Source: a virus (Duplodnaviria > Heunggongvirae > Uroviricota > Caudoviricetes). Taken from it: a stretch of 27,699 nucleotides of DNA. A program made the translations under genes and the position numbers. The notes beneath the pieces were generated by a model. The model had not been told where the DNA came from. It searched no databases and was given only the letters and a program-made list of their open reading frames with translations. Of the stretch, positions 130-27,699 are shown piece by piece. Each line of letters opens with the position of its first letter. Position 1 is the first letter of the stretch. Location: the IMG/VR virus record IMGVR_UViG_2737471821_000004; one strand, given 5' to 3'.

Positions 130-296
130 AAGACCTCCTGACTTGCTAATCCCGTCGATCCTTGAGGGATGATTGCATTACATACAAATATAGCACAGGC
201 TATATTATAAAGCATCAACTATCTACGAAAAACAATAACTTACAGTGTTATCAATAAGTTACGTTAGTTAATATCTGTGAGTATTCGGCAGTATTT

Positions 297-25575: not shown

Positions 25576-27276
25576 ATGAAACCAGTAAAACGTCTTTACC
25601 TTTCAACGGATGAAATTCACCTGGTGGATGCCAGCCTGGTACTGGAGCTGAACAGCTGCGGTCGGGGCTTCATCACCGCAGAGACAACAACCGATTACAC
25701 CGGAAAACTGGTGCGGCTGGATGTGGGGTATACCGATCTGCTTTTGCGCTGGTTTACGGGGTACGTGGAGCGATCGCAGCCCGCAGAAAACGGTTTTCAG
25801 CGTCTGTTCATTCGTGAACTGGTAGGTGTGTTTGAAAGGATGTGGCCATGTTCGTTTCAGCACCCGACTTTGCGTGAAATTGCGGGCTGGCTGGAAGAAA
25901 ACAGCGGGATCACGGTCAGTGTGCCTGATGCACAGTACAGCGATACCCCTATCCCACATTTTACTCATAACGGTACCGGCTATCAGTTGCTGAACAATCT
26001 GGGCAGGGCGTTCAGTATCCAGGATTACATCTGGTACCAGTTGCCTGATGGTTCGCTTTACGTCGGCGGTGCAGAAAAGTCATTGTTTGCCGGTCGTCCC
26101 GTAGAAATCCCGTCAGAGTTCAGCCAGGGGGCTGCTGGTGGTAACTCTGTGACATTACCAGTGATCCAGACTATGCGGCCAGGGGTGGAGATGAACGGTG
26201 AACGCGTGACTAAAGTTCACCTGACTAATGACACGATGGCGATCACATGGACGCCGAGAAACCGCGCAACGGGTAAACCTTTGCAGAAAACACCGGCGCA
26301 ACGGCAGATTGAAAGCCATTACCCGGAACTGGCATCCGGGCTTCATTTGCCAAAGATGGCCAGAGTCGTGGCGCATTCAGAGCCGGTAAAAAGCGGTAAC
26401 TTTGCCGATCCCTTCCGTCCACGTTACGCCGTGGACGTGCAGCTGCTTGACGCAGACGGAAATCCGGACAATCAGACACCTGTTTATTCAGCGGTGCCGC
26501 TGCCGGTACCAATGGCCGGGAATGATTCGGGTATGTTTCAGTTTCCGCCAGAAGGGACGCTGGTTGAGGTTGCATTCACGGGAGGCAGACCGGATAAACC
26601 CTTTATCAGGCAGACCCTGCCGGATGGTACCAGCCTGCCGGACGTTAAACCCGGTGAGCAATTGCAGCAGCAGCGGGAAGAAGTATCCCAGAGAGTGACG
26701 CAGGCTGGAGACTGGGTAAGGCAGACCGATCAGACCATCAGAGAAACATCAATGGTGCGAACCGTAAAAGCCGATACAGAACAGCGCGAGCTGGTCAGCC
26801 GTGAAACCACGGTGAAAGCCACGGATAAAACCACGGTACTGGGAACCGCCACACTGCTGGCCGGAGCCATCCAGCATGTAAGCGCCGGTGATTATAGCCA
26901 GGCGGTGAAAGGTAACAGGCTGGCCAGCATTGAAGGGAATGACGAAACTGAGATAACCGGGAAACAGTCCACTAAGGTGGCGGGAGCCGTAGATGTGGAT
27001 GTGGGGGGAACCCTGACTGAAAAGATTGCTGCATTACGCAAATCGGTGGCATCGGGCGGTCAGCAGATTATGGGGCCAACCGTCCATATCGGCAGTGAAA
27101 GTGTAAACACGCTGACCATGATGTTGGACACCATTGATTTACTGGCAGAGCTGGCGCAGCAATGTGCGAGTCATTCGCACCCCAGTGTTGGTACGCCAAC
27201 CAATGCCGGAGCGTTTACCCGGACGGCGACAAAGGCCGGACAGACCCGGAGCAAGTACCAGAACATCATTGCCTGA
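25576..27276 (+). CDS. gpD-like tail/baseplate hub protein (late control D family) with a long C-terminal extension (566 aa)
   Basis: N-terminal region (TLREIAGWLEENSGITV ... DYIWYQLPDGSLYVGG) resembles conserved blocks of P2 gpD (ARQIAGEHGLTPDV ... ANGYLFYIHGDTLKF); about 180 aa longer than P2 gpD, with a His cluster (SHSHPSVGTPT) near the C-terminus; last gene before the terminator. Confidence 0.5.
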   Translation: MKPVKRLYLSTDEIHLVDASLVLELNSCGRGFITAETTTDYTGKLVRLDVGYTDLLLRWFTGYVERSQPAENGFQRLFIRELVGVFERMWPCSFQHPTLREIAGWLEENSGITVSVPDAQYSDTPIPHFTHNGTGYQLLNNLGRAFSIQDYIWYQLPDGSLYVGGAEKSLFAGRPVEIPSEFSQGAAGGNSVTLPVIQTMRPGVEMNGERVTKVHLTNDTMAITWTPRNRATGKPLQKTPAQRQIESHYPELASGLHLPKMARVVAHSEPVKSGNFADPFRPRYAVDVQLLDADGNPDNQTPVYSAVPLPVPMAGNDSGMFQFPPEGTLVEVAFTGGRPDKPFIRQTLPDGTSLPDVKPGEQLQQQREEVSQRVTQAGDWVRQTDQTIRETSMVRTVKADTEQRELVSRETTVKATDKTTVLGTATLLAGAIQHVSAGDYSQAVKGNRLASIEGNDETEITGKQSTKVAGAVDVDVGGTLTEKIAALRKSVASGGQQIMGPTVHIGSESVNTLTMMLDTIDLLAELAQQCASHSHPSVGTPTNAGAFTRTATKAGQTRSKYQNIIA

Positions 27277-27287
27277 CCATTCCAGAC

Positions 27288-27315
27288 AGCCCGCAAAACG
27301 CGGGTTTTGTCGTTT
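27288..27315 (+). terminator. Rho-independent terminator closing the late operon
   Basis: GCCCGC-AAAA-CGCGGG hairpin followed by TTTTGTCGTTTT, 12 nt after the gpD-like stop codon. Confidence 0.65.
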
Positions 27316-27366
27316 TCTCAGTTCCTTGATAGGATTATTGCATACTCAAATGATAGGAATAGGGAT

Positions 27367-27699
27367 ATGAAAAATTTCATTATATTAGCTGTAGGGGCAG
27401 CAGTTTCATTTAATGTGTTTGCGGCTGAGGTTGTTTATGTGCCAACAGATACGAAGGCTAGTTACACGATTTTAGATAAGACTCGCGACGGCAGCATGGC
27501 TACTATAACAACTGAAAGAAAGGGGCCGTCTGGAACATCATATTCAAAGCGGCTGTACGACTGTACTGCCGGGACAGTTAAATATCTTGGAGACGGTGAG
27601 ACCATCGAGCAGATGAATAACTCAGCACCAGATCCAAATATGGCCCCTATAGTTGACCGCTCAATTGCATACTACATTGGACAAAAAGCCTGCCAGTAA
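27367..27699 (+). CDS. Small secreted hypothetical protein (about 110 aa, AT-rich gene; moron or flanking gene)
   Basis: Track ORF 27307..27699 trimmed to ATG 27367 (AGGGAT upstream). N-terminal signal peptide MKNFIILAVGAAVSFNVFAAEV; two Cys in the mature part; markedly lower GC than the phage late genes; stop at 27697-27699. Confidence 0.5.
   Translation: MKNFIILAVGAAVSFNVFAAEVVYVPTDTKASYTILDKTRDGSMATITTERKGPSGTSYSKRLYDCTAGTVKYLGDGETIEQMNNSAPDPNMAPIVDRSIAYYIGQKACQ

Follow-up and report, generated by a model that had tools for sequence, protein, structure and literature searches.

The last gene of a 27,699-nucleotide (nt) virus sequence (IMG/VR record IMGVR_UViG_2737471821_000004; this whole stretch is referred to as the window) encodes a 110-amino-acid (aa) protein with a predicted Sec signal peptide, and alignments to host and phage genomes indicate that this gene is phage cargo and not host DNA. 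The initial annotation of the window had left two options, a moron at the right end of a prophage or the first host gene beyond attR, and this either/or is now resolved as phage cargo. Our comparisons place the gene in an optional cassette of an ESSI-2-like prophage, between the terminator of the late operon and a probable cos site, and we are highly confident of this anatomy as a whole. On balance, we lean toward reading the gene as a moron; that it supplies an envelope-acting protective factor is a tentative guess.

The open reading frame (ORF) extends on the + strand from the ATG at 27367 to the TAA at 27697-27699, which forms the last three bases of the window as originally described. It encodes exactly 110 aa, matching the earlier estimate, beginning with MKNFIILAVGAAVSFNVFA and continuing after the predicted cleavage point as AEVVYV...KACQ. 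A Shine-Dalgarno sequence, AGGAA, can be read at 27355-27359 (+), 7 nt before the ATG, and is kept in Salmonella. A TTG at 27307 that would give a 130-aa protein was rejected as the start, since homologues begin at the MK... ATG. Homologues of the gene numbered 80 by word-indexed search, while exhaustive profile search returned 635 representative homologue clusters (443 at E<=1e-10), and the ratio of nonsynonymous to synonymous substitution rates (dN/dS) between the E. coli and Salmonella orthologues was 0.15, showing that this is a genuine gene and no chance ORF. The gene is under purifying selection.

Upstream lies the last late gene, encoding a 566-aa tail spike or baseplate hub (25576-27276, +; Pfam Gp5_C and Phage_base_V) with 95% identity to the 'baseplate protein' of Escherichia phages ESSI2_ev015 and ev129. 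The intrinsic terminator of the late operon, which is also the left boundary of the cassette, occupies 27288-27306 (+) and consists of a G+C-rich hairpin 12 nt past the spike stop codon with a T-run on its 3' side (TTTTGTCGTTTT); its folding energy of -15 kcal/mol corresponds to z = -3.7 against shuffled sequences. Across this terminator the G+C content (GC) falls from 54.6% in the spike gene to 43.8% in the 110-aa gene (51.8% for the whole prophage), and GC at third codon positions falls from 58.2% to 39.6%. The terminator followed by a switch to lower GC, as the initial annotation had it, was thus borne out.

Comparison with K-12, where the integration site is empty, defined the ends of the insertion. 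The window begins in the host gene mntS (1-129, - strand), which is the same as K-12 mntS and is annotated as mntS in strain 1919D3, and its identity with K-12 runs to base 209 and then ends. In K-12, the spacer between mntS and mntR is 185 bp and does not contain the 110-aa gene. The right flank was taken from complete E. coli genomes, eight of which match window positions 27200-27699 at 99.8-100% identity; seven of these eight match positions 25000-27699 over the full length. Features past the window end are located on an identical E. coli sequence, L001, in which each coordinate equals the window coordinate minus 15199. Aligning the K-12 empty site to both junctions showed that an 11-bp attachment (att) core, GCTATATTATA, is duplicated, once as attL at 199-209 and once as attR at L001 13905-13915 (window-equivalent 29104-29114), ~1.4 kb beyond the window end. 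Extending the sequence rightward therefore recovered attR with a core that is also present in the window; the att repeat anticipated near 130-296 does fall inside that stretch, but it measures only 11 bp.

The phage integrase gene (297-1337, -), present in the ORF list and annotated 'phage integrase' in an identical prophage, adjoins attL. The insertion of ~28.9 kb compares with 28.8-30.9 kb for whole phage genomes of the group, and its structural region shows 95-96.5% identity to Escherichia phages ESSI2_ev129, ev015 and ev040 (Peduoviridae, genus Quadragintavirus) and 77% to Cronobacter phage ESSI-2. By these alignments the element is an ESSI-2-like prophage (Peduoviridae) lying between mntS and mntR. 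E. coli 1919D3 has an identical prophage, in which the 110-aa gene is enclosed by the 11-bp att repeats and is followed by a second terminator, ~550 bp of non-coding DNA, a hexapeptide-repeat acetyltransferase gene on the opposite strand, and mntR. Placement inside an att-bounded insertion refutes the proposal that the gene is ordinary host DNA, the first chromosomal gene beyond attR, which could draw only on its position after a terminator and its differing GC content. The unoccupied K-12 locus lacks the gene between mntS and mntR, and the duplicated att core lies outside it. Moreover, the gene occurs in 13 of 5426 complete E. coli genomes, always adjoining the phage spike gene, and Salmonella relatives integrated at dsbB or raiA likewise carry it directly after the spike gene, showing that the gene follows the phage, not the integration locus. 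We regard the probability of a host origin as close to nil.

The integration site also appears to touch a host promoter. In window 196-209 (K-12 L002 3065-3078), the att core reads TATAATATAGC on the mntS strand, lies 3-13 nt upstream of the annotated rybA/mntS 5' end and appears to cover the mntS -10 hexamer, so that in the lysogen the mntS promoter DNA upstream of about -13 is phage DNA. Judged from this arrangement, insertion of the prophage could change manganese-responsive control of mntS.

Collinear prophages with and without the gene revealed the limits of the cassette. Among 50 complete E. coli genomes with a related spike gene, 13 hold the 110-aa gene. Alignment breakpoints in most gene-free relatives lay no more than a few bases from query position 2277 or 2309, corresponding to window 27276 (the spike stop codon) and 27308 (the terminator end). 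In pairwise comparisons of the right arms, homology resumed in every relative, gene present or absent, at a ~200-bp non-coding block at L001 12661-12871 (window-equivalent 27860-28070), and gene-free relatives carried ~100-130 bp, or a different small ORF, from the terminator to this block. Shared breakpoints together with resumed homology in the conserved block point to a discrete optional cassette of ~460 bp, from window 27309 to window-equivalent ~27769. The cassette has a terminator of its own directly 3' of the gene (L001 12541-12559, window-equivalent 27740-27758). Presence or absence in collinear prophages, deviant GC and this downstream terminator all support the moron alternative of the initial annotation, whereas its placement at the prophage right end needs amending, with the probable cos block and the acetyltransferase gene separating the 110-aa gene from attR.

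The conserved block very probably contains cos, as judged from the ends of deposited phage genomes. The record of Cronobacter phage ESSI-2 has an identical 15 nt, CTACACCGCACCCGC, at both ends, which map into the block, and both ends of the ESSI2_ev129 record fall on those few bases as well, L001 12715-12729, giving an inferred cos overhang ~215 nt past the window end. An explanation of the ESSI2_ev129 ends as arbitrary assembly breaks was dropped because they coincide with those of the independent ESSI-2 record, which are terminally redundant. The order of the right arm would then be spike gene, late-operon terminator, 110-aa cassette, cos block, second variable cargo slot and attR.

The two terminators flanking the cassette (27288-27306 and L001 12541-12559) resemble one another (CCCGCA-loop-GCGGGTTTT); the downstream copy carries a TTTTTTGTACCC tail and is similar to the lone late terminator of cassette-free ESSI2_ev129. 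From this resemblance, the cassette may have inserted into, or recombined through, the terminator.

The second cargo slot, between cos and attR, is occupied by the hexapeptide-repeat acetyltransferase gene (L001 13122-13826, window-equivalent 28321-29025, -). Relatives have other genes in this slot, encoding a PIN protein, an AAA_15/21 ATPase, a YafO toxin, an Acyl_transf_3-type acyltransferase, or a DprA-like protein accompanied by two others, and from this content it looks like a defense or serotype-conversion hotspot. The acetyltransferase itself is 234 aa long and annotated as 'serine acetyltransferase', scores just under the threshold for Pfam Hexapep, and is also found in the induced phage ESSI2_ev129.

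Beyond this prophage group, the gene family recurs in several unrelated settings. The 110-aa gene is absent from the virion-derived records of ESSI-2, ESSI2_ev015, ev040, ev129 and ev239, and a tblastn search of 50,697 phage records found it in two Klebsiella phages and the P1-like phage D6 only. Siphophages of Klebsiella, Salmonella and Citrobacter carry a homologue in the late operon, 43 bp ahead of the tape-measure gene; the D6 homologue, orf23, is likewise in the late operon, immediately before the portal gene. A P. putida prophage has its homologue directly after the S24 repressor gene and in the same orientation, a classic position for lysogen-expressed genes. Further homologues were located in a small integrase island and in another P2-like prophage, and one more lay in a housekeeping (polyamine) context. 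These contexts indicate that unrelated phages and integrative islands have acquired members of the family. Identity across the family is ~50% from Enterobacteria to Pseudomonas and Thiobacillus, with members in metagenomes as well. The protein matches PHROG 13843 over residues 1-110/110 (E = 1.9e-47), a group annotated as 'unknown function'; weak matches to Phage_portal_2 and phrog_21 were set aside as noise. Literature searches on TdeM, on Adhesin_E in phages and on ESSI-2 morons found nothing about the family, which is large, without a Pfam or NCBIfam name, mobile among myo-, sipho- and P1-like phages and itself new.

The protein carries features expected of an exported domain with a putative disulfide staple. 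Its signal peptide (residues 1-19; 27367-27423, +) was judged by inspection and by the A-x-A motif that is conserved family-wide at the same position; it combines a basic n-region (K2), a 16-residue hydrophobic core (FIILAVGAAVSFNVF) and a V-F-A motif, with predicted cleavage between VFA and AE, in keeping with the Sec signal originally proposed. The first cysteine is at residue 66, and inspection of the sequence found no lipobox; among the homologue sequences inspected, a clear lipobox was present in one only (P0080). The mature domain of 91 aa (27424-27696, +) contains the two cysteines already remarked on, C66 and C109, which are invariant and nearly invariant (>=90%), respectively, across 148 family members. 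Also invariant is a polar motif, R..G.SG..S.R.Y.C....VKYLG, with the core R51-x-G-x-S-G...S60-x-R62-x-Y-x-C66...V-K-Y-L-G...C109. In longer relatives the domain is C-terminal, behind a zinc ribbon plus transmembrane anchor, a DUF4124 domain or a lipobox and, rarely, with SH3_3 or rotamase, and this variety of anchors marks it as a general extracytoplasmic module.

AlphaFold2 modeling from a 31-sequence alignment gave a predicted local distance difference test score (pLDDT) of 94-98 for residues 21-110, with five strands forming a predicted antiparallel β-sheet and two helices. In the model, C66 lies in the turn after strand 56-65 and C109 at the end of helix 100-108, a placement predicted to tether the C-terminal helix to the sheet; we consider export and this fold, taken together, likely. 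Foldseek searches with the predicted model returned six Protein E entries at probability 0.89-0.99, and a structure search of BFVD had phage proteins among its top matches, one of them named 'Surface-adhesin protein E'.

One apparent match was discarded. PDB 6xi1, the sole nominally significant match of the family profile to PDB sequences (E = 5.9e-7), is an artefact: the score sums four identical repeats of 6.9 bits each, YNVDNSKVQYLGEGET, no single stretch is significant alone, and the score weakens under a larger family profile. Chain A of 6xi1 ('Flagellin hook IN motif family') has these repeats at 88-104, 194-210, 300-316 and 406-422. The repeat resembles the most conserved strand-turn of the family, YDC....VKYLGDGET, a likeness that is probably due to chance.

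Two characterized proteins with the predicted fold suggest different functions. PseM (PA0989) of P. aeruginosa is a Sec-exported endolytic muramidase toxin that acts in the periplasm, is toxic there without PA0990, and has its β-sheet stapled to a helix by Cys87-Cys134 (PMC12494544). It is probably the TdeM of PDB 9m3l, as deduced from name, organism and length. The 110-aa protein shares the sheet-helix core predicted for this fold, and the PseM staple is the arrangement implied by C66 and C109. One alternative is a peptidoglycan-active protein of this kind (muramidase or peptidoglycan binder), serving as a late lysis or entry aid or as a competition toxin. The differences are considerable: the 110-aa protein ends at residue 110, past the disulfide helix, while PseM runs to residue 186, and it therefore lacks the C-terminal helices α5 and α6 that provide the PseM dimer and substrate crevice (mature lengths ~91 and ~160 aa). 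No cognate immunity gene stands beside the 110-aa gene, which is followed by a terminator and non-coding DNA, and no partner gene was conserved across the homologue contexts examined. We also detected no sequence similarity to PseM-type PDB chains. Genes for a holin and an M15 endolysin, with two small downstream ORFs as possible spanins, are already present in the phage, and relatives without the 110-aa gene are inducible and viable. The missing α5 and α6 and the lack of an adjacent immunity gene make a PseM-type toxin unlikely, and a PseM-like peptidoglycan-active role more broadly seems improbable to us.

Protein E of H. influenzae (PF16747 Adhesin_E; PDB 3zh5, 6gus) shares the predicted antiparallel sheet with a packed C-terminal helix, raising the alternative of a lysogenic-conversion factor that, like lambda Bor and Lom, would reach the surface or outer-membrane vesicles and bind host matrix components or regulators of complement, such as vitronectin, laminin or plasminogen, with adhesion or serum resistance as the outcome. 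Identity to Protein E is ~8-10%, and the 110-aa protein is ~40 residues shorter. It did not match Pfam Adhesin_E even at E<=1 (gathering threshold 23.7 bits), while Protein E itself scores 65.6 bits; weak, sub-threshold matches occurred in 5 of 148 family members (best E 0.0019). By these profile searches the protein is not an Adhesin_E member. Aligning the family with hhalign to Protein E, the latter as a single sequence or as a 16-sequence alignment, gave short local matches of 21-23 columns at 4-31% probability. These were co-linear with the fold, with the VPTD..Y strand of the N-terminal part and the SIAYY..AC helix falling on matching parts of Protein E and the helix that ends at C109 falling on the one carrying Cys148. 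Such short matches do not prove homology, and the sequence-level link they suggest is weak but consistent. Protein E is a lipobox-bearing surface lipoprotein encoded on the Pasteurellaceae chromosome, whereas the 110-aa protein has a signal peptidase I signal, is predicted to be periplasmic, lacks any known route to the surface, and belongs to a family of phages and islands across β- and γ-proteobacteria. Its conservation in environmental Thiobacillus, Pseudomonas and metagenomes argues for a bacterial and not an animal-host target, and we consider an adhesin quite unlikely. In three phage types the gene adjoins a spike, tape-measure or portal gene, which could instead suggest a virion or tail-assembly component. 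The neighboring structural gene differs in each phage type, a cleavable Sec signal would remove the protein from the cytoplasm, where tailed phages assemble, and the gene is missing from 37 of 50 related E. coli prophages as well as from the five virion-derived records. From the induced, viable relatives without the gene, and from export out of the assembly compartment, we conclude that the protein is not required for making virions, and a structural role is very unlikely.

In the explanation we favor, a single-gene moron occupies the short stretch from the late-operon terminator to the probable cos of the ESSI-2-like prophage. The 110-aa precursor would leave the cytoplasm through Sec and be processed by signal peptidase I after Ala19, and in the periplasm it would form a small antiparallel β-sheet with its C-terminal helix pinned by a C66-C109 disulfide. 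Since it has no lipobox, the product would be soluble. With low confidence, we propose that the mature protein works by itself, binding an envelope component shared by β- and γ-proteobacteria, with peptidoglycan or a peptidoglycan-associated component as the leading candidate; cross-class conservation, the varied anchors of relatives and a fold like that of a peptidoglycan-active protein point to a conserved envelope ligand. The payoff for the phage could be protection, such as superinfection exclusion or resistance of the lysogen or infected cell to envelope-directed attack. This protective role is suggested, tentatively, as the most likely payoff from the accessory slots of temperate phages, the defense-rich cargo neighbor and the nearness to cos.

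Known phage systems offer partial parallels. Lambda bor and lom are classical phage morons, and T4 Spackle (Sp) is a small, Sec-exported periplasmic phage protein that works on its own in the envelope to keep out superinfecting phage. The likeness of the 110-aa protein to Spackle is a functional analogy only, with no relationship in sequence or fold. P2-like phages have a cos-proximal cargo hotspot, old/tin (PMC9122126, PMC13586616), and are reported to hold antiviral genes at the hotspot near cos (PMC13586616). Like the cargo of that hotspot and like classical morons, the 110-aa cassette is optional, located at the end of the late operon, bounded by terminators, low in GC and placed beside variable cargo near cos. 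It differs from these systems in having no convincing promoter of its own and a product that matches no known defense model, and the ESSI-2-like phages differ from P2 in that att and int adjoin cos. Morons for secreted proteins at late-operon ends are well known from temperate phages, and no surprising mechanism is in evidence.

Several observations weigh against a protective moron expressed in the lysogen. Exclusion and defense proteins tend to evolve rapidly and to be limited to narrow host ranges, whereas this family is strongly conserved across classes and has one member in the polyamine housekeeping context. No usable match to the protein was found in Pfam, NCBIfam or PADLOC (PADLOC at E<=0.1). 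The sole promoter-like match, TTGATA-17-AATGAT (27326-27354, +), agrees with the consensus at 9 of 12 positions, and such matches were barely more frequent than in shuffled sequences (7 found, 4.4 expected). A transcript starting ~7 nt downstream of it would begin past the Shine-Dalgarno sequence, and in Salmonella orthologues a 14-bp insertion breaks the match and the -10 element is worse. Being weak, badly placed with respect to the Shine-Dalgarno sequence and not conserved, it was rejected as the likely promoter and is probably non-functional. The gene may be expressed in the lysogen or by read-through from the late operon: the repressor-linked P. putida homologue would suit the former, and the late-operon homologues of D6 and the siphophages fit expression during lytic growth as well as they fit a role in the lysogen. 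Of the lysogenic-conversion moron suggested initially, the optional moron is supported; lysogenic conversion itself is at most putative, given the unconvincing promoter match and the homologues inside late operons. An Rfam search of the 2.2 kb to the right of the spike gene found nothing above threshold; sub-threshold matches to Trp and Phe leaders were dismissed, as they sit on terminator-like hairpins.

The anatomy newly defines a moron slot of ESSI-2-like Peduoviridae, a region that can be mined for further accessory genes. The predicted fold also connects a vaccine-antigen adhesin with a recently described muramidase toxin, two proteins so far studied separately. As a speculative extension, and a doubtful one, the >600 clusters (50% identity) may represent an unrecognized family of Sec-exported, disulfide-stapled proteins with the Protein E/PseM fold, shuttled by temperate phages of several unrelated kinds as a single-gene periplasmic weapon or shield. 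Such a protein might block envelope crossing by superinfecting phages, or neutralize tail lysozymes or type VI secretion system muramidases by binding either the cell wall or the enzyme itself. On that view, the 'adhesin' of Haemophilus and the 'muramidase' of Pseudomonas would both be specialized offshoots of a single broad envelope-binding superfamily. Assigning a function to the family would cover hundreds of 'hypothetical' phage genes.

Additional observations concern neighboring genes and deposited genomes. RefSeq E. coli genomes label the 566-aa spike gene 'hypothetical' despite its Gp5_C repeats and Phage_base_V oligonucleotide/oligosaccharide-binding fold. Homologues of the spike occur in phages of Vibrio, Haemophilus, Pasteurella, Aeromonas and Pseudomonas, and the gene is part of an HP1-type tail module in a genome that also has P2-type capsid genes. 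Both ends of the ESSI2_ev129 record (NC_049394.1 / LR597640.1) carry CTGTCTCTTATACACATCTGACGCTGCCGACGA and its complement, which we take to be the Nextera transposase adapter. This adapter, within the first 60 and last 60 bases, is contamination of the deposited genome, and the final annotated coding sequence of the record is probably an adapter artefact. Decayed relatives of the prophage were also encountered: in E. coli EcPF15 (NZ_CP054227.1; L018 5763-6029) the whole region separating the capsid/terminase genes from the last baseplate genes is missing, and in BY63 (L017 1-1081) an IS1 element adjoins a truncated tape-measure gene.

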